A DNA stretch of 64,000 bases, from contig CAZAYU010000004.1 of assembly GCA_964489445.1 (NCBI GenBank), positions 189-64,188 on the forward strand. The letters run 5' to 3'. Positions 37,699 to 54,349 of the stretch are shown here, piece by piece. How positions within the stretch are numbered: the stretch's first letter is position 1; each line of letters begins with the position of its first letter. Below the pieces are notes generated by a model. It was not told the origin of the DNA, searched no databases, and was given only the letters and a program-made list of their open reading frames with translations. A program made the position numbers and the translations under genes. The DNA comes from an uncultured Planctomycetia bacterium (GTDB taxonomy: Bacteria; Omnitrophota; Gorgyraeia; Duberdicusellales; 4484-171).

Positions 37699-37741
37699 AC
37701 GGACAGAAGAAATTACCGTTCCCTTCTGTCCGTTTTTTTTT
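37699..37741. terminator. Bidirectional rho-independent terminator between the RRM gene (+) and the BAT cluster end (-)
   Basis: 11-bp stem ACGGACAGAAG / CTTCTGTCCGT, followed by T8 on the plus strand and by TTTTTTAT on the minus strand. Confidence 0.7.
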
Positions 37742-38519
37742 ATATTCTTTCTAATTGTCTTTTTTTAATCCAACCAACTTTATCGTCAGCACGTTTTATT
37801 TTAAACCAACCATCACCCGTTGAAATTATTTCTACCTCCATTCCTTCATAAAGATTAAAGTAAACCGCCGCGCTGGCAAATGGTTCAAATTTAGCTTCTA
37901 CGGTTTCTTCTATAATAACCGCATTCTTATTCGAATAGAATATACGCTGGGAAAGAAAACCAATGCTAATCAGAAAAGCAATTCCTAAAATCGTAACCAG
38001 GCCCGATAATTTTAATCTAGACATTTTCGTTATACACCCCAGCCCCAACACAATAATCAATAAAATATAGATAAGAAATAAAAACACCGTTAACCCATCA
38101 ATCGTAAACTGATTAAAAAAACTATTGGCAAATTTTGTTATCCACGATTGAGAAGAAGCAACAACACTTCTTTTTATTAACGATTTAGCATACTTATAAT
38201 TTGCCTGTAAATCTCTATCTCTGGGAATCAATCTCTTAGCGCGAGCATAATTTAAAATAGTTTTTCCTAGATTATCTTTTTTAAAGTAACAATTACCCAG
38301 GTTGTAATAAATATTCCCGCTTTCTAAGCCTTTTTCTAGTATGCCTCTATAAGCTGAGATAGCTTCATTATAATCTCCCTGCTCGTAAAGCAGATTTGCT
38401 TTAATAAAAGCTATATCCAATGTTTTTTTCTCGAAAGCAAACCCATTAAACACAACACTGGTCAAAATTAAGCATAAAAAAATAATCTTTATCTTCCTGT
38501 TTTTTGCTTTTCTAATCAT
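37740..38519 (-). CDS. BatE-like TPR-repeat protein with C-terminal SH3-like domain
   Basis: TPR repeats (YNLGNCYFKK...), TM segments, C-terminal SH3b-like GWFKI...GWIKK. Last gene of the BAT-type cluster. Confidence 0.65.
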   Translation of the reverse strand: MIRKAKNRKIKIIFLCLILTSVVFNGFAFEKKTLDIAFIKANLLYEQGDYNEAISAYRGILEKGLESGNIYYNLGNCYFKKDNLGKTILNYARAKRLIPRDRDLQANYKYAKSLIKRSVVASSQSWITKFANSFFNQFTIDGLTVFLFLIYILLIIVLGLGCITKMSRLKLSGLVTILGIAFLISIGFLSQRIFYSNKNAVIIEETVEAKFEPFASAAVYFNLYEGMEVEIISTGDGWFKIKRADDKVGWIKKRQLERI

Positions 38520-40321
38520 ATCTTTTGCTTTTGGAGAGAATTAATTATTATTTTTATCTGACGAAAAGTATTTTCCATCCCTCCGGTTCCAACATCCAAG
38601 GGAGCATAACGCGCAAAATCACACTTCTTGAATGTTTCTTCTATCTGTAACAAAACTTCTTTTTTAACATTTTTATTTTTTAAGATTTCCTTAACTTTGT
38701 CCAACACAATTTCTCCCGGAGGTAAATGAAGCTTATCCCCGAGATACTCTTGAAAAGTCTTAAACGCATCATTGTAAAACTCGTTTTGTTTATTTTGTTT
38801 TAAGTATTGCTCGACTCTTTTAAGCCCTATTTTCGCCTTCTTAAAAGCATTTATCCTTCGAGCATAACGATAATCTGATTTTATCTTTTCCCTTCGGCTA
38901 TAAAAAATCAATGTTATGCTTAAGATAATTAACGGTAGTAACCCGCTGAATAAAAATAATTTATTGTTATATAGATACATACGCTGTTTTATTATTTTTC
39001 CCGGATAATTCTTGATATAGACTATTCCTCTGCCGATTTTTTCCTTACCCAGCGGTCTTTGAGTAATATTTGAATTTTCTAATATCTTTAGTTCTCCGCC
39101 TTTTTCTAATGGTTTCACTTCTATAGATATCGGACCTTTGGATATTGTTTTGTACTGTTTATCATTAGGATTAAAAAAACTAAACTCTACTAAAGGAAGC
39201 TGGTTAGATTTATCATCCTTTGGCATAAATATTTGTTCAAACGTTTTCTGATTGTTGCCTACAGTTACTTGTGGTTTGTAAACTTTAAAATCTTCTTGAT
39301 GTCCAACCCAAGGAGTACCTACTGTATCAAAATTTCCTTGGCCAGACACAACCATTTTCATGGTAATTGGATCCCCAACATTAACGCTTGTCGGGCTAGC
39401 ATCTACATTAAATCTAAAATTACCAACTGCTCCTTTAAAACTTTTTGGTGAATTTTCCGGTAGCGGCAATACAGAAAACTTAGCTTTTCCAGATTTTATA
39501 ATTACCGGATAAGTCTGATATCTTTGAAAAAAATCATTAAATCCTCCCCTAAAAAAATCATCAAACGCTGAGTTTCCTCTTCGTTGCTGTTTCTTTTTTA
39601 CTGCAACAGACATTTGGATATTAACTGGCCCAATAGCAAATTCTCCGGATCTAGTTCCAAAAACCCTAGTATTAAATTCAACAACCCTATACGATAGTCC
39701 GTTTAAAACCTCAGAATACTGTCGGGGCTGTCCATATTCACCCACGAATAATCCATCTTGCTCAAACTGAGGATATTGGATATCGGTTGCCTGGATCCCC
39801 CGAGTGTACAGTTTTATAACTAACGGAATAACTTCTTTTAAATAAACTTTGTCTTTTGCTGGAATAATTTTTACAAGCGCTCTTTCTTCTAAATCTAAAC
39901 TATTATTTGAAGTCTGACTAGAATTAGTTCCGGTCACCGGACCGCTGACTATCTCCACATTTAAAGAATCTGATTGGTAAGCATTACCCTGATAATCAAC
40001 AGAAAAAGGTCCAATAACAAAATTTCCTATTTTTTGGGGGGTAAGAGAATAATTATGTGTCGTGGAACTAGTAACTTCTCCATTAACTACGGACATCATT
40101 GTTGACGGGCCTATATAACGTATAGTGCAATCCTGTATATCAGGAAGATTAAAATGTGATACATTTTGTGCATTATGCAATGTAAGACTTAGCTTTATGT
40201 TTGAACCTAAGGAAATTTTACTTTTATCTATTGATGCGTTAAAACTTACATCCGCAGCGTTAGTGTTTACGGAAAATAGCAAAACCAATGACAATAAAAA
40301 TATTACTTTAGCTTTCTTCAT
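38516..40321 (-). CDS. BatD-like large exported/membrane protein
   Basis: 601 aa, signal peptide plus one C-terminal TM. Position between BatC and BatE as in described BAT operons. Confidence 0.7.
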   Translation of the reverse strand: MKKAKVIFLLSLVLLFSVNTNAADVSFNASIDKSKISLGSNIKLSLTLHNAQNVSHFNLPDIQDCTIRYIGPSTMMSVVNGEVTSSTTHNYSLTPQKIGNFVIGPFSVDYQGNAYQSDSLNVEIVSGPVTGTNSSQTSNNSLDLEERALVKIIPAKDKVYLKEVIPLVIKLYTRGIQATDIQYPQFEQDGLFVGEYGQPRQYSEVLNGLSYRVVEFNTRVFGTRSGEFAIGPVNIQMSVAVKKKQQRRGNSAFDDFFRGGFNDFFQRYQTYPVIIKSGKAKFSVLPLPENSPKSFKGAVGNFRFNVDASPTSVNVGDPITMKMVVSGQGNFDTVGTPWVGHQEDFKVYKPQVTVGNNQKTFEQIFMPKDDKSNQLPLVEFSFFNPNDKQYKTISKGPISIEVKPLEKGGELKILENSNITQRPLGKEKIGRGIVYIKNYPGKIIKQRMYLYNNKLFLFSGLLPLIILSITLIFYSRREKIKSDYRYARRINAFKKAKIGLKRVEQYLKQNKQNEFYNDAFKTFQEYLGDKLHLPPGEIVLDKVKEILKNKNVKKEVLLQIEETFKKCDFARYAPLDVGTGGMENTFRQIKIIINSLQKQKI

Positions 40322-40357
40322 GAATTTCTATTTTTAATCTTTACTCGCTTTGACAAC

Positions 40358-41242
40358 TCACCAGTCTTTTAGCACATCAGGATAATTCTGAGTTTTTTTC
40401 CGCTTCTGCACATCTAGAGTTTCCTCTTCTTGGCGATAATTCTCTAACAATAGTTTTGCCTCTTCTTCATTCATTTTTCTATTATCTATGGATTCTTTTT
40501 CCGAGTTACCCTCTTTGGGCTGATCTTCTTCTTTTTTTTCATTTTCCGGAGGCGCCTTTTCTTGTTTTCCTTCTTTTTTTTCTTCTGCTTTGTCAGGTTC
40601 AGAAGATTGATCTTCCTGCTTATCTTGGCTTTGGCTATCTTCCCTTTCCTCTGGCTGGTTAGTTTGTTGTTGATTTTGTTGACTTTCTTTATTGTCTTGT
40701 TTTTTCTCCTTTTTTTTAGTCTTGTCACTTTGAGAAGATTGCTGTTGTTTTAGCTGTTCTTTAAGAATCTCTATTTTTTCTTTAGTAAATTCGTAATTAA
40801 TTTTAGCATCTTTATCTTCTCCTTCAAGCTCTATCGCCCGTTTATAATAGTTTAATGAATCGCTGAGCAAATTAATAGCTTCCTGAAGATTATTTTTTTC
40901 TTTACTGCGAGCTTGCTGATATTTACTATTACCAATATTATAATTTGCTTTGGCCTCTAACTTCTTATCTTGGGAAACTAACGCTTTAGTAAAGGAACTT
41001 TCCGCTTGTTGATAATCCCCCTGTTTATAATAAGCTGCTCCTTGATCAAAGTTAACGACACCTGAATTAGGATCAATTTCTTGTGCTTCGTTGTAACGCT
41101 TTAAAGCTTCGGCAAAATTCTGTTGGTTATAAAAACTATTTCCTTTATTCACTAGCCCAGATACCGAATCAGCAAAAGCAAATTGATAAGTAAATACTAA
41201 ACAAAACAAACCAATAGTTATTACACGCCAATACAATCTCAT
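40358..41242 (-). CDS. BatC-like TPR protein with a low-complexity K/E/Q-rich tail
   Basis: Signal/TM, TPR repeats (ALKRYNEAQEIDPN...), then a ~130-aa charged low-complexity tail. Confidence 0.7.
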   Translation of the reverse strand: MRLYWRVITIGLFCLVFTYQFAFADSVSGLVNKGNSFYNQQNFAEALKRYNEAQEIDPNSGVVNFDQGAAYYKQGDYQQAESSFTKALVSQDKKLEAKANYNIGNSKYQQARSKEKNNLQEAINLLSDSLNYYKRAIELEGEDKDAKINYEFTKEKIEILKEQLKQQQSSQSDKTKKKEKKQDNKESQQNQQQTNQPEEREDSQSQDKQEDQSSEPDKAEEKKEGKQEKAPPENEKKEEDQPKEGNSEKESIDNRKMNEEEAKLLLENYRQEEETLDVQKRKKTQNYPDVLKDW

Positions 41243-42243
41243 AGTGTTCTCTTTCTTTCAAAGATAAATGACTCCAGCAGAAGAATTAACAAAGCAACAG
41301 CTAACGGTATTTGGAACCGTTCATCATAGCGCTTTCTCATTTTTCCTTCAAAATCTTTTTTCTCCATTTTTGAAAGCTTTTCTTCATAAATCAAATCTAG
41401 CCCGAATTCTGCCCCGGCAGCTTTAACATACCCGCCTCCGGTGATTAATCCTACTTCCTGCAATACAGTCTCTCCTAACCGAGACTTAACAAAGTTACCC
41501 TGTCTATCTCTTAAGAATAAATTTTTCCCCTGATTATCAGGAACCGGTATCAGCTCTCCTTCTTTTGTGCCTATCCCGATGCAAAATATTTTTACACCCT
41601 CTTTTTTAGCTTGTTTAGCAGCATTAATAACTTTGCCTTTGTGATCCTCCCCATCAGTAATAATTATTAGTATTTTATATTTGTTTAGTCCACCTTCATA
41701 ACTTTTTAACGCTTCAAAAATAGCGCTAGAAACAGAAGTTCCCCCTTTAGGGATAGTATTTACTCCGAGACCATCCAAAGAAATCATAAATCCGCTGTAA
41801 TCAAGAGTCAGGGGACACTGTAAAAATGCTTTTCCGGCAAAAGCAATCAATCCGATTCTATCGCCTTTTAATTTCTTGATTAAATCTTTAACTGCCAATT
41901 TTGAACGATTCAATCTGTTAGGCTTAACATCTTCAGCCAACATACTCTTAGAAGTGTCTACTGCTATTAGGATATCGAGACCTTTACGCTTAACCTCTTC
42001 CCACTGAAATCCCCACTGCGGCCGCATTAAAGCAAATAAACAAAAAAACACCGAAAGGTTAAATAAAATTAATTTTACTTTTCTTTTATTGTTATCTAAC
42101 GAAAAACTTAAATCATTTAAAAGATTACTCTCGGCAAATTTATTTAGCATTTTTTTTCTGTTTCGAAAAGATAAAAAGCAGAAAAAAATCAATAACGCTA
42201 AAAGCCAAAACAAATAACCCGCATAAACATTAGCAAATCTCAT
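41239..42243 (-). CDS. BatB-like von Willebrand factor A domain membrane protein
   Basis: Two N-terminal TM helices and a vWA MIDAS motif (DTSKSM). Confidence 0.85.
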   Translation of the reverse strand: MRFANVYAGYLFWLLALLIFFCFLSFRNRKKMLNKFAESNLLNDLSFSLDNNKRKVKLILFNLSVFFCLFALMRPQWGFQWEEVKRKGLDILIAVDTSKSMLAEDVKPNRLNRSKLAVKDLIKKLKGDRIGLIAFAGKAFLQCPLTLDYSGFMISLDGLGVNTIPKGGTSVSSAIFEALKSYEGGLNKYKILIIITDGEDHKGKVINAAKQAKKEGVKIFCIGIGTKEGELIPVPDNQGKNLFLRDRQGNFVKSRLGETVLQEVGLITGGGYVKAAGAEFGLDLIYEEKLSKMEKKDFEGKMRKRYDERFQIPLAVALLILLLESFIFERKRTL

Positions 42244-42283
42244 ATTTCTTATTTAATCACTAAACACCCTTAACCATACTTAA

Positions 42284-43282
42284 TTAAGGATTAACTCGTA
42301 AAATCGTATTCATTAAAACAAATTCTAAGAAAAGTAAAAACAACGCCGAAAATAAAAAATAAAAAAATAACTCATGGTAATCTGAATACCCTTTCTCTTC
42401 TACAGAAGTAGTTTCCAGCTTATCAATCTCCTGGTAAATTTTTCGCAAAGACTCAGTATCCGTAGCTAAATAATATTTAGCATCTGTTATTTGCGCAATT
42501 TCCTTAAGTATTTTTTCGTCAATTTTTATTTCCACCTGTTGATAGCCTTTATTACCGAAACGATCTCTGACTGGATAAGGTACCGGTCCTTGTGTTCCTA
42601 CCCCAATAGTATAGACTTTAATTCCTAATGCCCCTGCCGCATCTGCAGCAGTAATCGGAGAAATTTTTCCGGCATTATTGGCACCGTCGGTAAGCAAGAT
42701 AACTGCCTTTCCTTTAGCTTGTGTGTCTTCTAAACGGTTTAAGCTGCAAACTATTCCCGAACCAATTGCCGTCCCATCATCTTCCATCATTCCGGATTCA
42801 ACTCTTTCAAGATTTTTTATAAGCCAGCTGTAATCAAGAGTTAACGGACAAATAGTATACGCTCTTCCGGCAAACGCAACTATCCCAATTCTATCACTTC
42901 TTCTCTCTTCAATAAAATTCTCTACCACATTTTTAACTACTGTTATCCTATCCGCTATCTTTCCTTTAAGTTTAAAATCACAAGCAAGCATGCTTGTTGA
43001 ACAATCTATCGCCAGCACAATGTCTATTCCTTCACTTTGAACCTTTGTGTCTTCTATCGGAGTTTGCAATCGGCTTAAAGCAAACACTAACAAACAACAA
43101 GAAATAACCCTTAAAAATATTAAATTTTTTCTTAATTTTACTTTAAAAGAAAACTGAATATTTTCAAAAAACCTTGTAGAAGAAAAACGAATTCCAGGAT
43201 ATTTATTGCGTTTATTGTTGTAAAGCAACAAAACAATTACTAATGGAATTAATAATAAAAAAAATGGATTACGGAAAATCAT
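42284..43282 (-). CDS. BatA-like von Willebrand factor A domain membrane protein
   Basis: TM helices and MIDAS motif DCSTSM. Confidence 0.85.
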   Translation of the reverse strand: MIFRNPFFLLLIPLVIVLLLYNNKRNKYPGIRFSSTRFFENIQFSFKVKLRKNLIFLRVISCCLLVFALSRLQTPIEDTKVQSEGIDIVLAIDCSTSMLACDFKLKGKIADRITVVKNVVENFIEERRSDRIGIVAFAGRAYTICPLTLDYSWLIKNLERVESGMMEDDGTAIGSGIVCSLNRLEDTQAKGKAVILLTDGANNAGKISPITAADAAGALGIKVYTIGVGTQGPVPYPVRDRFGNKGYQQVEIKIDEKILKEIAQITDAKYYLATDTESLRKIYQEIDKLETTSVEEKGYSDYHELFFYFLFSALFLLFLEFVLMNTILRVNP

Positions 43283-44232
43283 TGTTTATTCTCTTTAGTT
43301 TGCTCTACTAATCTCACCGCCGACTCAAAGCTAGCACCCATTTCATTGACAGATGGGCCATATTTAGCAAATTTTACCAAATCACAATGGATTAAGAACT
43401 CACGCAAAAGTTTTTTGTGTTCGCCTGATAGTTTGTCAGAATTTTCTGCCGTAAACAAAAATTCTTCCGTGGTCATCTCTGGAGCTTTAAAACTAAACCG
43501 ATTCTCTAAATAGCATCTGGCAATTGACGAAAGCTCTTCGTAGTATTCTTTAATTTTTCCTTTGTTAATATAATCCTTTTGCTTTAACAATTCTAACTCT
43601 TCATAAGCTATTAAATGAGCTGGTCTAGCCATAACAACTTCTTTGCATGCTATTTGTTTCTTTCGAGAAACAATCCTCCAAATAGCTAAACCAACAATCA
43701 CTAACCCCAGCAATAACAAAATATAAACCCATCTACCCAGCGGTAAGCTAACCGGGCCTTTGATGTCGGAAATATTATCTACTTTCTCATCTTTATCCAG
43801 CAAGCTTTGTATTTCTACCTCTAATTCATTTGTTTCTATTTCCTGATACTGACTGTCTTGTTTTGTTTTATACTTTATTACTACCGAAGGAATTACAAAT
43901 TCACCAATCTCGTAATTTACTAATAAATACCACTGGGTGATATCTTTCTTCCCGAAAAAATCTCGCTTTTTTAATCCAGAATCTTCAACTTTGAAGTCTC
44001 CTAAGCTTTTGGGAATATCCGGCAATTGAATTTCTGTGTTGCTTTTAGTTTGAACGGATATCTGATATTTTATTTTATCTCCGACATAAAAAATATTTTT
44101 TCCACCACTGATTTCTACACTAACAACTGGCTGTTCATTAATATCGATTCCTGCCCAGCAAAAATATTGCCCTAATAGGATGAATGAAACAATAAAAAAT
44201 ATTCTTGAAACCATATTCTTTTTCATTTTCAC
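43279..44232 (-). CDS. Hypothetical membrane protein of the BAT-type cluster
   Basis: Signal peptide plus a central TM (WVYILLLLGLVIVGLAIW). No catalytic motifs. Sits at the conserved position between DUF58 and BatA. Confidence 0.6.
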   Translation of the reverse strand: MKMKKNMVSRIFFIVSFILLGQYFCWAGIDINEQPVVSVEISGGKNIFYVGDKIKYQISVQTKSNTEIQLPDIPKSLGDFKVEDSGLKKRDFFGKKDITQWYLLVNYEIGEFVIPSVVIKYKTKQDSQYQEIETNELEVEIQSLLDKDEKVDNISDIKGPVSLPLGRWVYILLLLGLVIVGLAIWRIVSRKKQIACKEVVMARPAHLIAYEELELLKQKDYINKGKIKEYYEELSSIARCYLENRFSFKAPEMTTEEFLFTAENSDKLSGEHKKLLREFLIHCDLVKFAKYGPSVNEMGASFESAVRLVEQTKENKQ

Positions 44233-44234
44233 AA

Positions 44235-45113
44235 TTACCTCATCCTTCTTTCTCGCATCTTAAAAAACATTACCAGCTCTTTAGTGTAAGAAGAATCTGT
44301 ACGCACATCGATACTATCAATGCTTACAGAACTAAGCAATTTTTTGCGTTGGCTAAACTTTAATAGTGCATCATCACTAAATTTTTTCCTAACAGATTTG
44401 CTAGAAGTATCAATAAAGTAGCTTTTACCGCCTTCGGAATCATCAAACTTAACTATTCCGATATTCGGTAAATTTATTTCTTTAGGGTCAGTTATTGTTA
44501 TTGCTATGATATCATGACGTTTGTTAGAGACAGATAAAGACTTCTTAAGATCAGGAGCATAAAAGTCAGAAATAATAAATACGACAGCTTTCCGCTTAAT
44601 AACTCTGTTTAAATATTCAATAGCCTTAGGGATGTCTGTTCCTTTACCTTCCGGTTTAAAGTATAAAGCCTCCCGGACAACCCGTAAAACATGCTGAACT
44701 CCTTTTCGCGAAGGAATAAATTTTTCAATTCTGTCGGTAAACGCGATTAATCCTACTTTGTCATTATTCTTAATCGCTGAGAATGCTAAAACTGAAGAAA
44801 TCTCTGCGGCCAATTGTGCTTTTAAGTTATTTACTGTCCCAAAATAAGAAGAACCGGACATATCCAAAAGAATCATGACTGTTAACTCTCTTTCTTCAGT
44901 AAACTTTTTTACATAAGGATGGCCCATTCGTGCAGTTACATTCCAATCTATCGAACGAATCTCGTCACCTGGCTGATACTGTCGAACTTCATCAAATTCC
45001 ATTCCCTGCCCCTTAAACACACTTTGATATTGGCCGGCAAAAACATCAGTAACCATCCTAGAGGTATTTATTTGAATCCGACGAATTTTTTTAAGTACTT
45101 CTTTAGGAATCAT
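44235..45113 (-). CDS. DUF58-family protein (vWA-like, MoxR-associated)
   Basis: 292 aa. The pattern DWNVTAR...LLDMSGS is typical of DUF58 proteins that pair with MoxR ATPases. Confidence 0.8.
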   Translation of the reverse strand: MIPKEVLKKIRRIQINTSRMVTDVFAGQYQSVFKGQGMEFDEVRQYQPGDEIRSIDWNVTARMGHPYVKKFTEERELTVMILLDMSGSSYFGTVNNLKAQLAAEISSVLAFSAIKNNDKVGLIAFTDRIEKFIPSRKGVQHVLRVVREALYFKPEGKGTDIPKAIEYLNRVIKRKAVVFIISDFYAPDLKKSLSVSNKRHDIIAITITDPKEINLPNIGIVKFDDSEGGKSYFIDTSSKSVRKKFSDDALLKFSQRKKLLSSVSIDSIDVRTDSSYTKELVMFFKMRERRMR

Positions 45114-45235
45114 TTTGCTTCCTTCTTGAGCTTATCTTGTTAACTTACGCTATCTGTTTATAAAATAATGTTTTGCACGCTACATAATTTTTTCTAATTA
45201 CACTCTTTCTACTCTCTGCTTTTTCAATAGACTAC

Positions 45236-46228
45236 TTACGGCACCTCTACTTCTTCAAAGACTCTTTTAACTATATCTTCAGAAGTTTTTTCTTCAGCCT
45301 CTGCTTCATAGCTTACAATAACTCGATGTCTTAAAATATCCGGTCCAATAGATTTAACATCCTGCGGAGTAACATATCCTCTTCCTTTAATAAAAGCATG
45401 CGCCTTAGCAGCAAGAGTTAAACATATTGTTGCACGAGGAGAAGCTCCATATTGAATGAATCCAGATAAATCCTTCATGTTATAATTTTGCGGTTCTCTA
45501 GTAGCAAACACGATATCTAATATATACTTTTCAATCTTTTCATCCATATATATTTCGTCTACTACCCCTCTAGCCTTAATTATATCTTCTGGTCCGACCA
45601 CCGGATTAACTGTTATTTTCTTGTCGGTAAAGCTCATTCTTTTCAGAATCTGAGCCTCTTCTTTAATGTTCGGATAAGTAACATTTATTTTTAACATAAA
45701 CCTGTCAACCTGAGCTTCTGGCAATGAATAAGTACCTTCCTGCTCTATCGGATTCTGAGTCGCCATAACCAAGAATGGATTACCCAGCGGAAAAGTATTC
45801 TCACTAATTGTAACCTGCCTTTCTTGCATTGCTTCCAATAAAGCACTTTGAACCTTAGCCGGAGCACGATTTATTTCATCAGCAAGGATAATATTGGAGA
45901 ATATCGGACCTTTTTTAGTAACAAAAGACCCCTCTTTGGGATTATAAATTAGTGTACCTAAAATATCAGCCGGAAGTAAGTCGGGAGTAAACTGTATTCT
46001 TTGAAATTTTGTGTTAATCGCTTGGGCCAGAGTCTTAATAAATAATGTTTTTGCTAAGCCAGGTACTCCTTCTACTAAAATATGGCCATTAGCTAATAAC
46101 CCGACTAAGAACCTTTCGATTAAATAATCCTGCCCGATGATTACCTTTTTTATCTCTGTAATCAAATTTTCTACAAAAACACTTTCTTGTTTAACTTTCT
46201 CATTTATCGCAGTTATTCCTGTATCCAT
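45236..46228 (-). CDS. MoxR-family AAA+ ATPase
   Basis: Walker A GVPGLAKT and Walker B ILADEINRA. 330 aa. Confidence 0.9.
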   Translation of the reverse strand: MDTGITAINEKVKQESVFVENLITEIKKVIIGQDYLIERFLVGLLANGHILVEGVPGLAKTLFIKTLAQAINTKFQRIQFTPDLLPADILGTLIYNPKEGSFVTKKGPIFSNIILADEINRAPAKVQSALLEAMQERQVTISENTFPLGNPFLVMATQNPIEQEGTYSLPEAQVDRFMLKINVTYPNIKEEAQILKRMSFTDKKITVNPVVGPEDIIKARGVVDEIYMDEKIEKYILDIVFATREPQNYNMKDLSGFIQYGASPRATICLTLAAKAHAFIKGRGYVTPQDVKSIGPDILRHRVIVSYEAEAEEKTSEDIVKRVFEEVEVP

Positions 46229-46318: not shown

Positions 46319-48694
46319 CTAACTGGAAAGTAGTTTTTTAACCTTTTTTGTTATCGTGAGAATATTTTTTTCCTCTTTTCTATTGTATTCTACTTTATCC
46401 ATTAGTTTACGAACAAGATATATTCCCAGCCCCCCTATCTTTCTTTCTTCCAAAGGCTTGTTAATATCCGGCTCAGGAGCCATAAGCGGATTAAAAGGGC
46501 TGGCATCGTCGGTAACTTCAATAGTCAGTTCTCCTTTGGCTAAAACAAAATTAATAATAACCCAATGTCTTTGAGAATTATCATAACCATAAGTAATAAT
46601 ATTACTCACCACTTCTTCTAGCGCTAGATTAATGTCGTTTGTATCTTCATTTGACAAATCATTTTTTTTGCTGAATACGGAGACAATCTTAGCTAAAGTT
46701 TGAATTTCGGAAAGATCATTCTTTAAAGCAAATTTTCTTTTATTTATTTCTTCAACTATATTTTTTGTAGAACAAAAATATTTTAAAACCATAATTGTAA
46801 TATCATCTGATTGATCTATTCCTTTGGAGTAGTTTCTTACTTCCTTTAATGTCTTTTTTACTAATTTTTCAGCAGAATCATCCCTGTGAATATAAACAAG
46901 ATCTCTTAATCTTTCTTCAGAAAACTGTTCCCCGTTTTCGTTAAAAGCTTCGTTAACGCCATCGGTATATAGATAAATCACATCGTCAGGCATTAATGTT
47001 AACTTTCCTTTACCAAAGGCAGCGCCCTCAATTACTCCAACAACAGTGCCTCCTGTTCCTTTAATAAATTTAACTTCTCCGTTTCGACGAATAATTAAAG
47101 GCGGATTATGGCCAGCATTTGCATAATTTACTTCACCGTTTTCTGTATTAAGGATACCGCAAAAAACAGTAATAAACATACAAGAATCATTTTCAGCGAA
47201 AATTTCTTTATTTACTCTTTCTAGAATTTTCTGTGGTGCAATCGTTTCTGAAGCAATTGTTTTAATTAATGTTTTAACCACCGCCATAAAAAGCGCCGCT
47301 GGTACTCCTTTTCCAGAAACATCCCCAATCACAAAACAAAGATGCTTACTATCAACAAAAAAGAAATCATATAAATCTCCGCCAACTTCTTTTGCTGGAG
47401 CTAATACAGCATAAATATCAAATTCAGATCTTTGGGGAAAAGGCGGAAATAGTTTGGGAACAATTCCCATTTGAATATTATGAGCAATCCGTAACTCACT
47501 TTCCATTCGTTCTTTGATCACCGTTGTTTCTTTTAATTTTTTGATATATTTTTTTAGGGCTTCACGCATATAGACAAATGAGTTAGTAAGCTTTCCGACC
47601 TCATCATTGGTTTTAACTGTTGAAAAACTAAAATCCAAATTTCCTTTAGCAATATCCTTAGTCCTTCGCGCTAGCATTCTTAAAGGCTTGGTAATTGTGC
47701 CGGATATTAGAACAACAACAATTAATAAAAATAAGAATCCTAAAATACCTAACGCGAATACACTCTTATTTAAATTAATAATATCCAACATTAATTCATC
47801 TTGTGGAAAAAGCACTCCCAAGGACCAACCGCTAGAAGGAATAGGTTCATAAGCCATCCAACATTTCTTCCCAGTAACAATACTTTCAAAAGGAACAAAA
47901 CCAGAACCGCCGTTAATCATTTTTTTTCCTATATACCGAAGATTATCATCGCTGCGTGATTCAGCTACACTAAATATAGTTTCGTGCATAATTAGATCTT
48001 TATAAGGGTGAGTAACAATTATTCCGTTATCGGAAATTAGAAAACCATATCCCGTATCAGCTATCTTAATCGATGAAACAATATTTTGAAGCCAAGATAA
48101 AGAAACATCGGCAGTAACCACCCCCTCAAATACCCTTTCCCCGTTAACGTTACGATAGAAGGGAACCGAATAAGTGGACATTATAATATTACCCCCTCCC
48201 TCATCGTAATAGGGAGCACTCCAACCAGGCTTTTGCAGCTCTTTAGGCATTTGATACCAATCTCGATAAAAATAATTATAGTCATCGTTACCTAAATAAG
48301 TAAATTTTATATCACCATCATTCTTGTAGAAATAAGGAGCGAAATATACCAAATTTTTATCAAAAAAATTAGGCTCAAAAGCAATTGCCCCTCCATAAAT
48401 TTCCGGATTATTTTTAATCGCCAAGCGTAATAAGCTAAGCAGCTCATTTTTCTTGTAAGAAAATTTCTCCAAAGAAAAAGCTAAACTTTGCGGAACTTTT
48501 TCGATAGGCCGTAATACAGTTTCAATTTTATTTACTGTTAATAAAGCCAAATTTTCGGCATTTTCTTTAATTTGCCGAACAATAATCCGACGAGAAAAGG
48601 AATAATTATACCCAAATACAATTAAAAAAATAAACGTAGAACTGCATAAAATAGAAAAAACTAACTTAAAAGCTATTCCTTTATTTTTAATCAT
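46319..48694 (-). CDS. Membrane sensor with periplasmic Cache-like domain, HAMP, PP2C/SpoIIE phosphatase and a C-terminal RsbW-type GHKL serine-kinase domain (fused RsbU-RsbW-like protein)
   Basis: 791 aa. TM1 (~res 10-30), periplasmic ~270 aa, TM2 (ALGILGFLFLLIVVVLI), HAMP. SpoIIE motifs GGDLYDF, GDVSGKG, TDGVNEA, DDITIMV. C-terminal N-box LALEEVVSNIITYG, G1 EVTDDASPFNP, G2 IGGLGIYLVRKLMD. Confidence 0.8.
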   Translation of the reverse strand: MIKNKGIAFKLVFSILCSSTFIFLIVFGYNYSFSRRIIVRQIKENAENLALLTVNKIETVLRPIEKVPQSLAFSLEKFSYKKNELLSLLRLAIKNNPEIYGGAIAFEPNFFDKNLVYFAPYFYKNDGDIKFTYLGNDDYNYFYRDWYQMPKELQKPGWSAPYYDEGGGNIIMSTYSVPFYRNVNGERVFEGVVTADVSLSWLQNIVSSIKIADTGYGFLISDNGIIVTHPYKDLIMHETIFSVAESRSDDNLRYIGKKMINGGSGFVPFESIVTGKKCWMAYEPIPSSGWSLGVLFPQDELMLDIINLNKSVFALGILGFLFLLIVVVLISGTITKPLRMLARRTKDIAKGNLDFSFSTVKTNDEVGKLTNSFVYMREALKKYIKKLKETTVIKERMESELRIAHNIQMGIVPKLFPPFPQRSEFDIYAVLAPAKEVGGDLYDFFFVDSKHLCFVIGDVSGKGVPAALFMAVVKTLIKTIASETIAPQKILERVNKEIFAENDSCMFITVFCGILNTENGEVNYANAGHNPPLIIRRNGEVKFIKGTGGTVVGVIEGAAFGKGKLTLMPDDVIYLYTDGVNEAFNENGEQFSEERLRDLVYIHRDDSAEKLVKKTLKEVRNYSKGIDQSDDITIMVLKYFCSTKNIVEEINKRKFALKNDLSEIQTLAKIVSVFSKKNDLSNEDTNDINLALEEVVSNIITYGYDNSQRHWVIINFVLAKGELTIEVTDDASPFNPLMAPEPDINKPLEERKIGGLGIYLVRKLMDKVEYNRKEEKNILTITKKVKKLLSS

Positions 48695-49700
48695 TACTTA
48701 CACAATTTTTATAAAAATTATTAAACTCCGGAATTGCACTAATCATTTTAGCTTTTTTTAGCTCTTCTCCTACTCGTAAATAATCTCCGGGTGAGAGCTT
48801 ACCGGAAATTTTATTTTGTCCGCTAGTCATTATCAAGTCTTCCATTCTTCCCAGCATCCACTTTTGATGGACTCTATTCGCCGGCATATTAGCTGCTTTT
48901 ATGTACTTTAAAACTATATCTAAGGCTTCATCCTGATGAGCAAAGGCATACTCCCATCCTTTGATTGTAGCCATAACAAAAGAGCAGCAAAGACGAGGAT
49001 TACTTAAAAATGTTTCTTTTACCGTATAAATTCCATCTTCAGGAAAGCTTAAGCCGTACTCAGAAAAAAAGAATGTCGTTAACTCTTCCGGGTCGTAACC
49101 AGAATTCAATATGGTATGATATTCGTTGTACCACATGGCTGAAGCCACATCAATGCCTCCACGCAAAAACAAATTTACAGAATATGTCTGAGGAACAATT
49201 GTTACTTTAAGGTTATATTTTTCAATAAAACTTAGTGCCTGCATTTGAGAAATTCCTGTCCAAACTCCTACTTTTTTATTATTAATATCTTCTATTTTTT
49301 TAATACCGCTTGATTTTTTTGCCACCAGCATAAACGCTGACTTCTGCATTATCTGAGCAATATTAACCAATTCTAACCCTTTAGCATGAGCCTGTATTGC
49401 TGTATTTAAGCTTAGATTGATAAAATCAACTTTACCCTGTTTTAAAAAATCACAAGGGGAACACTGAGGACCTCCGGTTGCAATATCAAGCTCTATTCCG
49501 TAATCCCGATAGAATCCTTTTTCATAGGCTACATAGTATCCGGCAAATTGAGCCTGAGGGACCCACTGAGCAACAAACGAACTTTTTTCAAGATTCTTCG
49601 AGCTATTTTGAGCTTCAACTGGAGACAATAATATAAAGCGGATAAAAAAAAGATATGCGACTATACTTAAGAAAACTTTTTGGTTAGACTTAAACACCAT
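48687..49700 (-). CDS. NMT1/THI5/SsuA-like periplasmic substrate-binding protein
   Basis: Signal peptide, 337-aa type-II SBP fold by motif similarity. Overlaps the sensor gene start by 8 nt. Confidence 0.7.
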   Translation of the reverse strand: MVFKSNQKVFLSIVAYLFFIRFILLSPVEAQNSSKNLEKSSFVAQWVPQAQFAGYYVAYEKGFYRDYGIELDIATGGPQCSPCDFLKQGKVDFINLSLNTAIQAHAKGLELVNIAQIMQKSAFMLVAKKSSGIKKIEDINNKKVGVWTGISQMQALSFIEKYNLKVTIVPQTYSVNLFLRGGIDVASAMWYNEYHTILNSGYDPEELTTFFFSEYGLSFPEDGIYTVKETFLSNPRLCCSFVMATIKGWEYAFAHQDEALDIVLKYIKAANMPANRVHQKWMLGRMEDLIMTSGQNKISGKLSPGDYLRVGEELKKAKMISAIPEFNNFYKNCVSND

Positions 49701-49823
49701 TGATTTTGTTTCTTTACAAGCTAGTGATGAATAGTAAATGTTTTCTTAGCTGTTCCCTAACAAATACTCTGTGAATTAATGCACTATTTTCTGTAAAAAT
49801 AAATGACCAATAATATTTATTTT

Positions 49824-50153
49824 TTATGTAGCGTCCTTCAACGCCTCCTCTTCTGATGAAGATATTTGGAATAATTTAACAAGTCCTGCTGTTTCAAAAA
49901 CTTCCAACACGCGCTCTTTAAGAGAAAACAATATTAATTTTCCAGAAACTTGTTTCACCCTCTTGGCAGCAAGCAGAAAAACTCTTAAACCCGCACTTGA
50001 TACATAATCGGTTTGAGAAAAATCACAGATAATCTTTTTATTTCCTTCTTCAACTAGACCAATAAGTAAATTTTCTGTCTCTTTCGCTGAAGAAGCATCA
50101 ATCTTACTGTCAACAATCATTATTTTTATATCGTTTACTGTTCTTATTCCCAT
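49824..50153 (-). CDS. STAS-domain anti-sigma-factor antagonist (SpoIIAA/RsbV family), paralogue B
   Basis: 109 aa. Conserved phosphorylatable-serine context DYVSSAGLRVFL. Confidence 0.85.
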   Translation of the reverse strand: MGIRTVNDIKIMIVDSKIDASSAKETENLLIGLVEEGNKKIICDFSQTDYVSSAGLRVFLLAAKRVKQVSGKLILFSLKERVLEVFETAGLVKLFQISSSEEEALKDAT

Positions 50154-50159
50154 AATTCA

Positions 50160-50169
50160 CCCCCCCCCC
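50160..50169. repeat. C10/G10 homopolymer in the ribosome-binding region of STAS paralogue B
   Basis: The plus strand reads A-C10-GG. On the coding (minus) strand this is CC-G10-TGAATT-ATG, so the tract sits 6 nt upstream of the start codon. Confidence 0.9.
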
Positions 50170-50185
50170 GGATTAAATTCACGCT

Positions 50186-50557
50186 TTATTCACTTATTTC
50201 TTTTTTTTGCATTTTATCAAGATAATCATCCAATTCCTCAATACTTGAAAAAATTTCCTGAATCGGTAAAGCATTGACAATATCAAAAACTTTCTTTATC
50301 GAAGAAGAAAGATTTACCATATACATATTCCCTTTGTTTTGCTTAAGATTCTTTTTAGTTTTAAAAATAACTCTCAATCCCGCACTGCTAATATAATTAA
50401 CCCTATCCATATCCAAAATAATAACCTCTGGGCGGTTTTTTAATATTGAATCGACTTCTTTTTCCAAGATCATATAGGTATTAGAATCAACAGTGCCAGA
50501 CAATGAAATAATAAATGTGCCTTGTCGTTTTTCATCTGTAACAACACTTAAAGGCAT
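50186..50557 (-). CDS. STAS-domain anti-sigma-factor antagonist (SpoIIAA/RsbV family), paralogue A
   Basis: 123 aa. DMDRVNYISSAGLRVIF conserved serine loop. RBS GGAGGAAATAATG. Confidence 0.85.
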   Translation of the reverse strand: MPLSVVTDEKRQGTFIISLSGTVDSNTYMILEKEVDSILKNRPEVIILDMDRVNYISSAGLRVIFKTKKNLKQNKGNMYMVNLSSSIKKVFDIVNALPIQEIFSSIEELDDYLDKMQKKEISE

Positions 50558-50848
50558 TATTTCCTCCTTGTTATTCTATTATCGTTAATTATCATTGTAA
50601 AAATTAGGTAAAAACAAACCCTAAATACTTTAAAAACATAATCCTAAGACTTAATTTTTAAGATATCACAGTTGTTAAAGATAGTCAAGAATCTACCTAT
50701 TAATTTAATCAAAATGATGGTTCTGACAAAGAGAAAAGGTGTTAGCACCTACAACCATTTAATCACAAAAAAATGTATAAATATGCATAAACAGTCCTTC
50801 CAGCCAGAAAAGATTCCGTTTCAAAAGAAGCGAGAAAACTATCTACTT

Positions 50849-50923
50849 CCGTTTAAAATGGTTGCCCCGCCTAGACTCGAACTAGGAATAACTGATCCAG
50901 AATCAGTCGTGTTACCAATTACA
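50849..50923 (-). tRNA. tRNA-Gln (anticodon CUG)
   Basis: Hand-folded 75-nt cloverleaf. U1-A72 acceptor (TGCCCCG/CGGGGCA) typical of bacterial tRNA-Gln. Anticodon loop TTCTGGA. T-arm CCTAG-TTCGAGT-CTAGG. CCA is encoded. Confidence 0.8.
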
Positions 50924-51016
50924 CTACGGGGCAATTGGCTATTATTGTAGTATTTTCAATGGGTTCTGGCAAGTATTTTCCTAAATTAAGGATTAGATTA
51001 TTTCGAGAGTATAAAT

Positions 51017-52156
51017 TTATCTGAATAATCTTGAAATAATAATCAATAAGAAAGGTATTAAGAAAAATACACCAGCTACATAGAAAATAGCATACCTTCT
51101 CTTACGAAAAGCTAACTCTCCCAATCCCTTAGCAAGAGCTATTGGAATTTTCCTAAAGATTTTTATTGGATAAATACATAGTACTCCGACTAAATTAAAT
51201 AAAAAATGGACAAAGGCAATAGTAATTGCTGCGATATTACCAGTTGCAAATGAAGCTAAAATAGCAGTAGTCGTTGTCCCAATATTTGCACCTAATGTTA
51301 TCGGAAATATACACTCAACCGTGATAATTCCCGCGCCAATCAACGGAATTAAAAGTGAAGTAGTTATTGAACTACTTTGAACTATAGTTGTAAAAAACAA
51401 TCCGGCAATAATCCCAATAATTCCGTTTTGCTCCAGAACTTTACTCAAAGCAATCTCTGTATTTTTAATGACTAATGATTTCATCAAACGCACGATAAAG
51501 TATAAAGATGAAAAAAGAATCACAGCAGACAAAACTAAAATTAGAACATAACCAAACTTCTCACTAATCGGGAGAATATCTATAAATAGTTTTTTTATTA
51601 CATTTATCAGTGGTTGAGTAACTGTTTTTAGTGGACTAGTAAATCTAATTCCACCAGTATTCGAAAATAAATGAGCCAAGCCAGCTGCTGCTTTCTGTAA
51701 AAACCCAGTAGCAAGCTCCAGCGGAAACATTATTAGCACACAAATAACATTAAAAAAGTCATGAACAGATGCTCCAGAAATTGCTCTTTTGAATTCTTCC
51801 TTACGAGTAATGTGCCCTAAGGAAACCAATAAATTAGTTACTGTTGTGCCAATATTTGCACCCATAATAATAGGAACAGCGTTAGTAATGGTAATAATAC
51901 CTGAAGCTACCATGCCTACTAATATTGATGTGACAGTAGAAGAACTTTGTACTAAGCTTGTGGCTAAAATTCCGATAAATAATCCGGTAAACGGGTTAGA
52001 TGTAGTTTCCAGAAGTGCTTCGGCAAATCCCTTACCAAAACCTTTAAAAGCCACTCCCATCAACCCAATGCTTACTAGAAATAAGTAAAGGAAAGTAATT
52101 ACGAATACTAGCTTGCCGTAAGTTTTAAGTTTATCTTTATTCATTATTAAATACAA
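51017..52156 (-). CDS. Na+/phosphate cotransporter (NptA/PF02690 family)
   Basis: 379-aa polytopic protein with duplicated QSSS(T/I)T motifs (LVQSSSTVTSILVG / IVQSSSITTSLLIP). Confidence 0.8.
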   Translation of the reverse strand: MYLIMNKDKLKTYGKLVFVITFLYLFLVSIGLMGVAFKGFGKGFAEALLETTSNPFTGLFIGILATSLVQSSSTVTSILVGMVASGIITITNAVPIIMGANIGTTVTNLLVSLGHITRKEEFKRAISGASVHDFFNVICVLIMFPLELATGFLQKAAAGLAHLFSNTGGIRFTSPLKTVTQPLINVIKKLFIDILPISEKFGYVLILVLSAVILFSSLYFIVRLMKSLVIKNTEIALSKVLEQNGIIGIIAGLFFTTIVQSSSITTSLLIPLIGAGIITVECIFPITLGANIGTTTTAILASFATGNIAAITIAFVHFLFNLVGVLCIYPIKIFRKIPIALAKGLGELAFRKRRYAIFYVAGVFFLIPFLLIIISRLFR

Positions 52157-52241
52157 TTTGTATAATTGTGCTAATTATATTGCAGTTATGTGTACTCCAT
52201 ATGAAGAGAATGTGAAGATTATGTGAAGATTAAAATATCTA

Positions 52242-53663
52242 TCAAGCTTTAGGGATGCTAACCACAACTTGTGTGCCTTTTCCGCTGCTTTTCGCTTGTA
52301 CATCGCCACGAAGAAGCACGATAATATGTTTTACTATCGCTAATCCCAGGCCAGTTCCTGCTTGGCCTTGCGATCTTGCTTTATCTACACGATAAAACCT
52401 TTCAAAAATTCGATCAATATGCTCATCAGAAATTCCAATACCATTATCTTTGATAACGCCCAGAAAGGAATCTTTTTTTTCTGACAAAACAATCTTGATC
52501 ACTCCTCCTGGTTCTGTATACTTAATAGCATTATCAATAATATTTACAAAAACCTGTTCTACCCTCATCCGATCAGAATTAATTCTAAAATCACTTCCAA
52601 CAAACTCTACCAGCAATTTATGTTTTTTAGCAGAAGTAGCATGTCCAAACCCTAAAATAATTTCATTTAACAATAATTCAAAATCAAACACCGCATAGTT
52701 AACCTTGCTTTCCTTTAGCTCTAGCTCAGAAAGCTTTAGCAAATCATCGACAATATTATTCAACCCTTCAGCGTGTTTTTTAATAATTGCAATAAATCTT
52801 CGAGCGTTTTGTTTATCTTCTAAGGCCCCATCTTCCAGAGTTTCCACAAATCCTTTAATAGACGTAAGCGGAGTTTTTAATTCATGTGATACATTCGCCA
52901 CAAAATCAGCTCTGACTTTATCAATAATTTTTAAATTATCAATTCGAAGCTGTAACTCGTCAGCCATTTTGTTTAATGCTTCCCCTAATTCACCAAGCTC
53001 ATCTTTACTGCGTATCCTTACTCGTTTATCAAAATTACCAGAGGCAATACTTTGCGCAACTTCCTTCATTTGTCCAATAGGATCGGCAATTTTCATTGAA
53101 ACAAAATAGCCAAGCAGCAAAGCAAACATTATGGTAACTATCCCCCCAGTTAAAACTACTCGATAGATAAATCTTATTTGCGAATCCACATCTACCAACG
53201 GCAAAGCCACCCTTATTAAACTTATAACTTTTTCATCTTTTTTAACTGGTATTGCCACATATTTCATGCTATATCCCAACACATCACTAAATCGATTGCT
53301 CTCTCCGGACCCTGAGTTAATAGCTCTGATTAATTCAAGCTGATCTTCATATTTTTCTTTTTTCTGAAAATTCCGCTCCGAATCACTAAATATTCGATAA
53401 TGCTTATCAATCACAGTTATTCTTAATCCAAGGATAGTGGATAATTCTTGGATTTTATCCTGAACAACACCTTGGTTATTAGATAATAAGTCATCTTTTA
53501 AAATTTCACCCACTAAAAATGCATTACTTTTCAACCGCTCAGATATTTTTAATTCATAATAATCACGTAATTTTAAACTAACAAAAAAATTTAAGACAAA
53601 AACAGCAATCACAATTAGCAAAATATAGGCCGTTAGTATTTTCCAAACAATTTTTACCTTCAT
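52242..53663 (-). CDS. Sensor histidine kinase (PhoR-like)
   Basis: Two TMs, HAMP, H-box VANVSHELKTPLTSI, N/G boxes (DNAIKYT, DNGIGI, GTGLGLAIVKH). 4-nt overlap with the response regulator gene. Confidence 0.85.
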   Translation of the reverse strand: MKVKIVWKILTAYILLIVIAVFVLNFFVSLKLRDYYELKISERLKSNAFLVGEILKDDLLSNNQGVVQDKIQELSTILGLRITVIDKHYRIFSDSERNFQKKEKYEDQLELIRAINSGSGESNRFSDVLGYSMKYVAIPVKKDEKVISLIRVALPLVDVDSQIRFIYRVVLTGGIVTIMFALLLGYFVSMKIADPIGQMKEVAQSIASGNFDKRVRIRSKDELGELGEALNKMADELQLRIDNLKIIDKVRADFVANVSHELKTPLTSIKGFVETLEDGALEDKQNARRFIAIIKKHAEGLNNIVDDLLKLSELELKESKVNYAVFDFELLLNEIILGFGHATSAKKHKLLVEFVGSDFRINSDRMRVEQVFVNIIDNAIKYTEPGGVIKIVLSEKKDSFLGVIKDNGIGISDEHIDRIFERFYRVDKARSQGQAGTGLGLAIVKHIIVLLRGDVQAKSSGKGTQVVVSIPKA

Positions 53664-54349
53664 TTGCGTACGTCTTTAAAGCGATATCCAATGCCTCTAA
53701 TTGTTTCAATTTGATTTCTTGATTTTCCCAATTTTTTCCGCAAGGATTTCATATGTGTGTCAATGGTCCGATCATATATATCAGCATTATAACCAAATAC
53801 TACATTTAATATTTTATCCCGAGACAAAACAACTCCTGGTTGTTTAATCATCATCTCCAGCAATTTAAACTCTGTAGGAGTAAGTGAGATATTTCTATTA
53901 AAAGCAGTAACTTTATGCTTAAGAATATCTAAACTAATGTTATTAACAATTATCCTCTTATTAGATGAAGCAATGCTGTATCTTCTTAATACAGCTTTAA
54001 TCCTAGCCATTAGCTCTCGGGGACTAAATGGTTTAGGCAGATAATCGTCAGCCCCAATCTCTAGGCCAATGACTTTATCAGCTTCTTGAGATTTTGCAGT
54101 AAGCATAATAATTGGAACAGTTGATGTATTTTCTTGGCTCTTTAAAATTCTGCAAATCTCTAAGCCGTCAATCTCCGGAAGCATTAAATCTAGAATAATT
54201 AAATCTGGTTGTTCTTTCTTTATTAAATCAACTGCTTTGCGACCATTAGTTACAAAAGAAGTTCTATAGCCTTCTTTCTTTAAATTATAGCTGACCATCT
54301 CCACTATATCTAAATCATCCTCAACAATTAAAATTCTTTTTAAACTCAT
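53660..54349 (-). CDS. OmpR/PhoB-family response regulator
   Basis: Receiver domain (DD...D54 in ILDLMLPEIDG...K) plus winged-helix trans_reg_C (GYRFK). Confidence 0.9.
   Translation of the reverse strand: MSLKRILIVEDDLDIVEMVSYNLKKEGYRTSFVTNGRKAVDLIKKEQPDLIILDLMLPEIDGLEICRILKSQENTSTVPIIMLTAKSQEADKVIGLEIGADDYLPKPFSPRELMARIKAVLRRYSIASSNKRIIVNNISLDILKHKVTAFNRNISLTPTEFKLLEMMIKQPGVVLSRDKILNVVFGYNADIYDRTIDTHMKSLRKKLGKSRNQIETIRGIGYRFKDVRK

Follow-up and report, generated by a model that had tools for sequence, protein, structure and literature searches.

Proteins in which a PP2C phosphatase is fused to an RsbW-type kinase, partner switches whose sigma factor is encoded at a distance and phosphatases coupled to dCache sensors have all been described. 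In HsbR of Pseudomonas aeruginosa and CrsR of Shewanella oneidensis, one polypeptide unites a receiver (REC) domain, a PP2C domain and a kinase/anti-sigma domain of the GHKL type, controls the phosphorylation of one STAS protein (HsbA at S56, and CrsA, respectively) and binds RpoS, which is encoded elsewhere (PMC6482189). Rv1364c of Mycobacterium tuberculosis is arranged as PAS-PP2C-anti-sigma-anti-anti-sigma (PMC12143880), and SypE of Vibrio fischeri is a dual serine kinase/phosphatase for the STAS protein SypA, which is modified at S56 (PMC8256260). The chlamydial Rsb system comprises a membrane-bound RsbU with a periplasmic sensor and two STAS antagonists, with no dedicated sigma factor in the locus (PMC11619594, PMC4552016). 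Genomic surveys mention PP2C proteins that have periplasmic sensors and cooperate with STAS kinases, along with bifunctional REC-PP2C-kinase proteins (PMC9239204), and serine phosphatases with dCache domains are a recognised receptor class (PMC4822843). Here, we describe a four-gene module on contig CAZAYU010000004.1 (assembly GCA_964489445.1) of an uncultured bacterium that GTDB places in the Omnitrophota; the window is the whole stretch of 64,000 nucleotides that was analysed. The central product of the module is a membrane protein of 791 amino acids, in which the same two opposing enzymes are joined. What differs from the known systems is a periplasmic dCache/HAMP input, together with a solute-binding protein (SBP) as candidate co-receptor, on a PP2C-RsbW pair of the HsbR/Rv1364c type.

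All four genes, for the proteins STAS-A, STAS-B, the SBP and the 791-aa fusion, lie in the same direction on the minus strand (Table 1), as an earlier note made from the letters of this DNA had read them. In full agreement with that note, Pfam returned the order dCache, HAMP, SpoIIE, HATPase_c_2 for the fusion protein. Completed by its membrane segments, the protein consists of a transmembrane segment, the dCache domain, a second transmembrane segment, HAMP, PP2C (SpoIIE) and a C-terminal GHKL domain of the RsbW type, every domain scoring above its Pfam threshold. Two hydrophobic segments, at about residues 6-30 and 305-342, flank the dCache domain and fit its location in the periplasm. The classification of the C-terminus as a GHKL/RsbW-type ATPase proved sound, with a score well above the gathering score. 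Among NCBIfam models the domain matched RsbW (5.6e-14) and SpoIIAB (4.3e-11), both under the models' own cut-offs, and among PDB sequences it matched SpoIIAB (2e-5) and RsbW (6M36, 3e-5). A role like that of RsbT, i.e., a kinase activating the phosphatase, was rejected because the NCBIfam and PDB matches were to RsbW and SpoIIAB and none was to RsbT. The candidate metal-binding aspartates of the phosphatase, D440, D458, D578, D630 and D631, show no variation among 29 relatives. In the kinase domain, E694 and N698 (N box), D729 (the adenine-contacting aspartate of the G1 box), F734, P736 and G755-x-G757 (G2 box) are invariant in 75 fused homologues. The catalytic residues of both enzymes thus appear to be under purifying selection.

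An AlphaFold2 (AF2) model of residues 383-791, calculated from an alignment of 75 sequences, reached a mean predicted local distance difference test (pLDDT) value of 88.4 and a predicted template modelling (pTM) score of 0.71. It comprises a long N-terminal helix (residues 384-411), the PP2C domain, a flexible linker of seven residues modelled with low confidence (644-650) and an alpha/beta domain. When the PDB was searched with this model by Foldseek, the top match was 3KE6 (E 3e-23), with 372 aligned columns spanning both domains. This entry is the crystal structure of the RsbU and RsbW domains of Rv1364c. It was followed by the PP2C domains of RssB, SiaA, SpoIIE and RsbX. Phosphatases of the RsbU type with HAMP, PAS or REC input (HAMP/PAS/REC-PPM) are controlled through a coiled-coil linker (PMC12143880), and the modelled helix between HAMP and PP2C would fit this mechanism.

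For the enzyme pair, HsbR/CrsR and Rv1364c are the closest analogues. HsbR and CrsR share with the 791-aa protein a PP2C domain followed by a C-terminal GHKL domain in one chain, an adjacent single-domain STAS protein with an SSAG-type serine and the absence of a sigma gene from the locus. They differ in their input, a REC domain in the cytoplasm that receives its signal from a phosphorelay, whereas the protein described here is a membrane protein with periplasmic dCache and HAMP, for which Pfam yielded no Response_reg match. The locus in the window also adds a co-encoded SBP and, in its lineage, a second STAS protein. Rv1364c, the top structural match, carries RsbU and RsbW domains in the same order in one chain, at a sequence identity of about 22%, but is cytoplasmic, has a PAS input and bears its STAS domain fused to the C-terminus. 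Here the input is periplasmic and the STAS proteins are encoded by separate genes, with neither a PAS nor a STAS domain found by Pfam in the 791-aa protein. The SypE-SypA pair resembles the module in that a dual serine kinase/phosphatase sets the phosphorylation state of a STAS protein whose output is not a known sigma factor; it differs by having no membrane sensor. In SypE the kinase comes first, and the domain order is RsbW-REC-PP2C with REC as the input. The chlamydial system is comparable for its periplasmic-sensor RsbU, its two STAS genes and its sigma-less locus, but its RsbW is a separate protein, and the feature of two STAS genes is not conserved among the relatives of the module. It serves as an analogue only for periplasmic input and two antagonists. 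The earlier note had named it the closest analogue and had taken the kinase-phosphatase fusion as the distinguishing feature. Neither view can be upheld in the light of HsbR, CrsR, SypE and Rv1364c and of the many fused relatives reported in the following.

Homologues of the fusion protein number in the thousands, and those with named hosts belong mostly to the Omnitrophota and in some cases to Aureabacteria and Phycisphaerae. For the DNA polymerase I of the organism itself, every named relative comes from a metagenome-assembled genome of Candidatus Omnitrophota. A scan of genome contigs with the single protein yielded six loci; the statistics given here stem instead from an alignment-based scan of metagenomes. 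Related loci are designated by L and a number. A fused HATPase_c_2 domain is present in 78 of the best 120 database clusters. The remaining clusters lack it, comprise proteins of about 640-656 amino acids and are 58-71% identical to our protein over residues 1-640. Of 86 independent related loci, 29 encode the fused form, 30 have a stand-alone RsbW gene no more than 2.5 kb away, and the remaining 27, many of them on short contigs, show neither. On a neighbour-joining tree of the common sensor-phosphatase region with 184 members (98 of them fused), at least 18 transitions between the fused and unfused states occur, compared with 61 ± 4 for shuffled labels. Neighbouring rsbU and rsbW genes have repeatedly fused and split in this sensor family, and the fused state is evolutionarily labile. 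In the complete genome of a member of the Aminicenantes (L013), STAS, RsbW (135 aa), an NMT1-type SBP and a dCache-HAMP-PP2C protein are encoded by four separate genes. The sensor-phosphatase (58% identity over residues 1-640), the SBP family directly upstream of it and the STAS type are the same as in the window, whereas RsbW stands alone and is encoded between the STAS and SBP genes. No characterisation of this unfused module was found in the literature searched, and in evolutionary terms it is the closest relative of ours. The same module thus exists in unfused form in other phyla, and the fusion arose by joining two adjacent genes, one for an RsbU-type phosphatase and one for an RsbW-type kinase. 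The closest kinase-less relatives, L001 and L014 (65-66% identity), possess STAS-A, SBP and phosphatase, and no RsbW was found anywhere on their contigs. Within the Omnitrophota-type clade, the genes for STAS-A, the SBP and the fusion protein form a conserved core, present in L010, L094, L095 and L097; L096 is devoid of the SBP.

Further arrangements of the same parts were encountered among the relatives. In the Omnitrophota locus L010, a second bifunctional enzyme with the opposite order, HATPase_c_2, cNMP_binding, SpoIIE, is encoded at positions 20624-22370 right after a STAS gene, and two more STAS genes are interspersed among glycogen-related genes. Partner-switch parts seem to have expanded in the Omnitrophota. 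In L026-L031, L038 and L043, which come from human-gut and other metagenomes and show about 36% identity, an RsbW-STAS fusion of 244-281 aa is encoded upstream of the SBP, which is followed by a dCache-HAMP-PP2C protein and finally by a separate RsbW of 135-138 aa. In these loci the module contains another kind of fusion. Proteins of about 403-418 aa with a STAS domain adjoin the unfused module in L013 (positions 12016-17853) and also in L004, L068 and L092, and one of them in L013 precedes an ABC transporter whose binding protein and permease are encoded by a single fused gene. These proteins may provide an output or a link to transport in the respective lineages.

The predicted phosphorylation site of STAS-A is S58, the second serine in YISSAGL, which aligns with the serine of SpoIIAA (PDB 1TH8/1TID) that is mutated to alanine in 1TID. 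In STAS-B, S53 (YVSSAGL) was assigned via the common SSAGL motif, so that the claim of a phosphorylatable serine in both proteins is borne out. The two had also been regarded as paralogues. Both are indeed STAS proteins, but they are not close paralogues, being 36.5% identical over 63 residues, and only STAS-A is conserved. Orthologues of STAS-A (45-82% identity) are encoded upstream of the SBP and fusion genes in L094, L095, L014, L001, L096, L002, L097 and L010. STAS-B has a close counterpart in L094 only (68%), and all other STAS proteins of related loci are at most 46% identical to it. We thus regard STAS-A as the conserved substrate, predicted to be of the anti-sigma-antagonist type, and STAS-B as a second STAS protein that is specific to the lineage and confined to the nearest relatives. 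The two genes are separated by 32 nt. Within this gap, 7 nt upstream of the STAS-B start and at the position of the Shine-Dalgarno sequence, a run of ten G residues is found in a window of about 35% GC. Its length is the same in three assemblies (the window, L007 and L009), and L094 carries a canonical GGAGG instead. The tract could act as a slippage-prone translation signal, although no length variation was seen in the three assemblies.

Among PDB sequences, the dCache domain comes closest to 3LI8 (E 2e-25) and 3LIB (1e-24), which are sensor domains of Methanosarcina mazei histidine kinases. 3LIB (target R1) binds methyl-, dimethyl-, trimethyl- and ethylamine and was studied in the work that defined the amine-binding class dCache_1AM, whose receptor classes include SpoIIE phosphatases. 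A dCache serine/threonine phosphatase of Desulfovibrio inopinatus (target R3) binds ethanolamine at 2.3 uM, and the motif of the class (AM_motif) in PctD consists of R103, D133, W155, F188, M215, S217 and D235 (PMC10589655). PctD residues were mapped onto the window protein by a phmmer alignment to 7PRQ_A, in which chain index + 11 reproduces R103, D133, F188, A204, Y206, M215, S217 and D235. When compared with the known sensors of the class (PctD, PacA, M. mazei 3LIB and D. inopinatus R3), D112, W146, Y163, M172 and D196 match PctD D133, F188, Y206, M215 and D235. K82 takes the place of R103, T174 that of S217 and Y162 that of A204, while the equivalent of W155 falls outside the alignment. 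The pocket resembles that of dCache_1AM sensors, which is suggestive of a small-amine sensor; the match is partial, and the residues allowed by the motif are given only in a figure. An assignment to the amino-acid sensors (dCache_1AA), prompted by Y139, R144, W146, Y162 and D196, was rejected in favour of the amine type because R144 is replaced by tryptophan in 21 of 29 relatives and by serine in 3LIB.

The SBP was confirmed as a protein of the NMT1 type. Its nearest PDB entries are 4NMY and ThiY (3IX1), a thiamine-precursor binding protein, and a hydrophobic segment at residues 7-30 fits a secreted or periplasmic protein. In sensors of the LuxP-LuxQ and NspS-MbaA kind, a periplasmic binding protein contacts the periplasmic domain of the sensor. 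The basis for assuming a comparable role here is genomic. The end of the SBP gene overlaps the start of the fusion gene by 8 nt, and overlaps of 8-14 nt recur in L094, L095, L097 and L010. Furthermore, an SBP gene is the immediate upstream neighbour of the sensor gene in 31 of the 66 loci with enough upstream DNA, and these loci come from several phyla and habitats. We therefore consider the SBP a probable co-sensor of the module. Alternatively, it could do no more than bind the substrate for an ABC importer whose other subunits are encoded elsewhere, and its gene would then lie upstream by chance and outside the signalling module. Such proteins are indeed best known from transport (ThiY, SsuA, TauA), ABC transporter genes occur near the module in some distant loci (L013, and ten loci in the neighbour analysis below), and most fused loci of the wider family lack the SBP. 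On the other hand, neither an ABC permease nor a transport ATPase was found in the window, where the sole ABC_tran protein adjoins a SufBD-core gene for iron-sulfur cluster assembly. Together with the gene overlaps and the recurrence in different phyla and habitats, this renders a pure transport function unlikely.

Starting from the domain anatomy, its conservation, the origin of the fusion and the structural match, we propose that the module is a ligand-gated, membrane-bound bifunctional STAS kinase/phosphatase of the partner-switching kind, a reading that we hold to be probable but by no means assured. The two enzymatic activities, the ligand, the role of the SBP and the output are the parts that we infer. 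The dCache domain would read a periplasmic signal; probably it binds a small ligand of the amine type itself, receives a ligand from the NMT1-type SBP, or does both. From there the signal would travel across the membrane and through HAMP to a helical linker, present as a dimer, and thereby switch the PP2C domain on or off. The C-terminal RsbW-type domain would phosphorylate S58 of STAS-A and S53 of STAS-B using ATP, and the balance of both activities within one polypeptide, set by the ligand, would fix the phosphorylation state of the STAS proteins. Unphosphorylated STAS would then bind the RsbW domain and displace a partner held at the membrane, or it would act on a different target. If HsbR and CrsR are taken as a guide, the partner set free may be a sigma factor encoded elsewhere. 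The output would act in trans because it is not encoded beside the module in any relative examined.

Several observations weigh against this proposal. The alanine in the G1 box of the kinase domain, to which we return below, could weaken ATP binding or kinase activity. Neither the window nor the surroundings of any related locus yielded a sigma candidate that could serve as partner of the RsbW domain. The SBP is missing in 21 of 26 fused loci of the wider family and is thus not obligatory. With regard to amine sensing, two of the mapped motif positions are substituted, albeit conservatively, and single substitutions are reported to have abolished binding in the two control proteins of the study that defined the motif (PMC10589655). 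Finally, no experimental characterisation of the sensor family was found in the literature searched.

Every open reading frame (ORF) of the window with at least 110 codons for amino acids, and three smaller ORFs in gaps, were scanned with Pfam, and none of them matched a sigma or anti-sigma family. The approximately 1.6 kb of the longer contig past the high end of the window contain the rest of the gene for RNase Y and that for 5-formyltetrahydrofolate (5-FTHF) cyclo-ligase, and no sigma or anti-sigma gene. Probes with SigF, SigB, RpoE and FliA also gave no match, either in the window or across some 1.1 Mb of related loci, but they were run without a positive control and are not relied on. In cis, the module lacks a sigma gene over about 46 kb on its downstream side and about 15 kb on its upstream side, in agreement with the claim that no such gene occurs within 15 kb on either side or adjacent on the contig. 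As a peculiarity of the locus, the term sigma-less is justified only in this sense, since known fused systems likewise have their sigma factor elsewhere. Nor does a sigma gene adjoin the module in any of the approximately 95 related loci, as far as their genes are annotated by Pfam.

The absence of a sigma gene from the window and from the neighbourhood of related loci could also be explained by a non-sigma output, in which free STAS acts on non-transcriptional targets, as described for SypA, BtrV and HsbA-HsbD (PMC6482189, PMC8256260, PMC9239204). The target might be the MoxR-DUF58-BatA-E proteins encoded directly downstream, with STAS-B forming a second branch. The MoxR gene starts 90 nt past the stop codon of the fusion gene, no terminator-like site was found between them in a scan that is unable to settle operon boundaries, and the order is kept in L094. 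Yet the adjacency is limited to the lineage of the window and L094 and is absent from L010, L011, L095, L096 and L097. A functional link between the module and the MoxR/Bat operon was considered and has been downgraded because of this restriction. Unbiased clustering of neighbour genes across 90 loci revealed no recurrent output gene; the SBP was the only recurrent partner. In addition, HsbR and CrsR illustrate that a fused RsbW domain can hold a distantly encoded sigma factor. We deem a non-sigma output rather improbable. It concerns the output alone and would be compatible with the core of the proposed mechanism. In the neighbour clustering, the SBP was followed by ABC_tran (10 loci), RelA_SpoT (5) and HD_4 (5), all in distant loci of the rumen type. 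In L055, L052, L079 and similar loci of this type, RelA_SpoT, HD_4 and ABC_tran are found near fused dCache-PP2C-RsbW genes without HAMP, which hints at a link of this subgroup to (p)ppGpp metabolism.

A further alternative holds that the C-terminal GHKL domain is a pseudo-kinase that serves for docking only, in the manner of an anti-sigma factor, and that phosphorylation of the STAS proteins, if it occurs, is the work of another kinase. All of the N, G1 and G2 boxes had been reported as present. The N and G2 boxes are intact, whereas the G1 box is so only in part: it reads D729-D-A-S-P-F, and A731 replaces the single glycine of the family motif D-x-G-x-x-F. That a module can exist without a local kinase is suggested by the kinase-less L001 and L014. 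However, the same alanine occurs in 23 of 78 fused relatives with all remaining residues of the ATP site kept, and the exchange consequently looks tolerated and not like decay. The invariance of the N-box, G2-box and other ATP-site residues in the fused homologues also speaks against a pseudo-kinase, as does the retention of the phosphorylatable serine in both STAS proteins. Kinase competence of the domain is therefore likely, and we consider its loss quite unlikely.

More doubtful still is a broader departure from the proposed mechanism, in which the module is a self-contained, sigma-independent device that passes an SBP-assisted amine signal to free STAS acting on non-transcriptional targets, here the adjacent MoxR-vWA (Bat) proteins, with STAS-B as the second branch. 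A conventional module of the SigB/SigF type with sigma and anti-sigma genes just outside the four-gene region can be dismissed as highly improbable, as nothing was found in its favour, no ORF of the window matches Sigma70 or anti-sigma families in Pfam, the longer contig adds only RNase Y and 5-FTHF cyclo-ligase, related loci also lack sigma genes, and the reading is refuted for roughly 46 kb on the downstream and roughly 15 kb on the upstream side.

The surroundings of the module are summarised here together with its features (Table 1). Downstream, the 317-aa protein of the Bat-type operon shows a weak BatD-like match, and housekeeping genes follow beyond the operon. Upstream lie tRNA-Gln, a Na/Pi cotransporter gene, genes for a HAMP histidine kinase and an OmpR-type regulator, gltX, 2-oxoacid:ferredoxin oxidoreductase genes, dxs and the genes for a PilZ protein, YmdB and RNase Y. 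The Na/Pi cotransporter, the sCache-like/HAMP histidine kinase and the OmpR-type response regulator (51017-54349), just upstream of tRNA-Gln and the module, possibly form a phosphate-responsive two-component system, which nothing found here connects to the module. The region contains no more promoter-like sites than expected from shuffled sequence, and the candidate upstream of STAS-A is to be seen in this light. An Rfam scan of the window returned two tRNAs and nothing else. All ORFs of at least 110 aa with a Pfam match in the window (1-64000) lie on the minus strand. A 104-aa RRM_1 protein (37374-37688) is the product of the one gene found on the plus strand, and the GC skew is negative throughout. 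This suggests that the window is one long co-oriented segment of a replichore.

Table 1 Features of the four-gene module and its immediate surroundings in the window (residue numbers refer to the 791-aa fusion protein).
Feature	Position	Strand	Basis and remarks
STAS-A, 123 aa	50186..50557	-	Pfam STAS 7.6e-19; NCBIfam ant_ant_sig 1.3e-18; above cut-offs
STAS-B, 109 aa	49824..50153	-	Pfam STAS 4.9e-18; NCBIfam anti-sigma-antagonist match; above cut-offs
NMT1/ThiY-type solute-binding protein (SBP), 337 aa	48687..49700	-	Pfam NMT1 6.1e-40; weak SsuA_fam match
Sensor/phosphatase/kinase fusion gene including stop codon, 791 aa	46319..48694	-	ORF and Pfam/NCBIfam
dCache_1, residues 37-294	47813..48586	-	Pfam dCache_1 E 3.8e-25; MCP-like_PDC_1 1.2e-32
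HAMP, residues 329-381	47552..47710	-	Pfam 1.3e-10
Predicted linker helix between HAMP and PP2C, residues 384-411	47462..47545	-	AF2 model residues 2-29
PP2C/SpoIIE phosphatase, residues 449-639	46778..47350	-	Pfam SpoIIE 2.7e-51
RsbW/SpoIIAB-type GHKL Ser kinase/anti-sigma domain, residues 659-783	46346..46720	-	HATPase_c_2 4.5e-27, 95 bits vs gathering score 27.4
G10 homopolymer at STAS-B Shine-Dalgarno position	50160..50169	-	Sole G/C run >=8 in the 64-kb window
Candidate promoter upstream of STAS-A, TTTACA-17-TAGAAT	50573..50601	-	10/12 consensus positions; weak evidence
tRNA-Gln upstream of module	50859-50933		Terminator-like site at 50750-50737
Complete Bat-type operon directly downstream	37740-46228		MoxR AAA+, DUF58/vWA, 317-aa protein, BatA, BatB, TPR, BatD, TPR-SH3

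The module is a modest variation on a kind of system already known, and it overturns nothing. No experimental studies of signalling in the Omnitrophota, an uncultured phylum, were found in the literature searched. The locus offers a compact and experimentally tractable pathway from input to switch, with sensor, phosphatase and kinase in one membrane protein accompanied by their substrates and a candidate co-receptor. The wider sensor family is abundant in sediments, guts and the rumen and is common in metagenomes. Its fused and unfused forms allow us to ask what the fusion of opposing enzymes does to a partner switch, and the family as a whole allows us to ask what partner switches control when a sigma factor is not encoded nearby.

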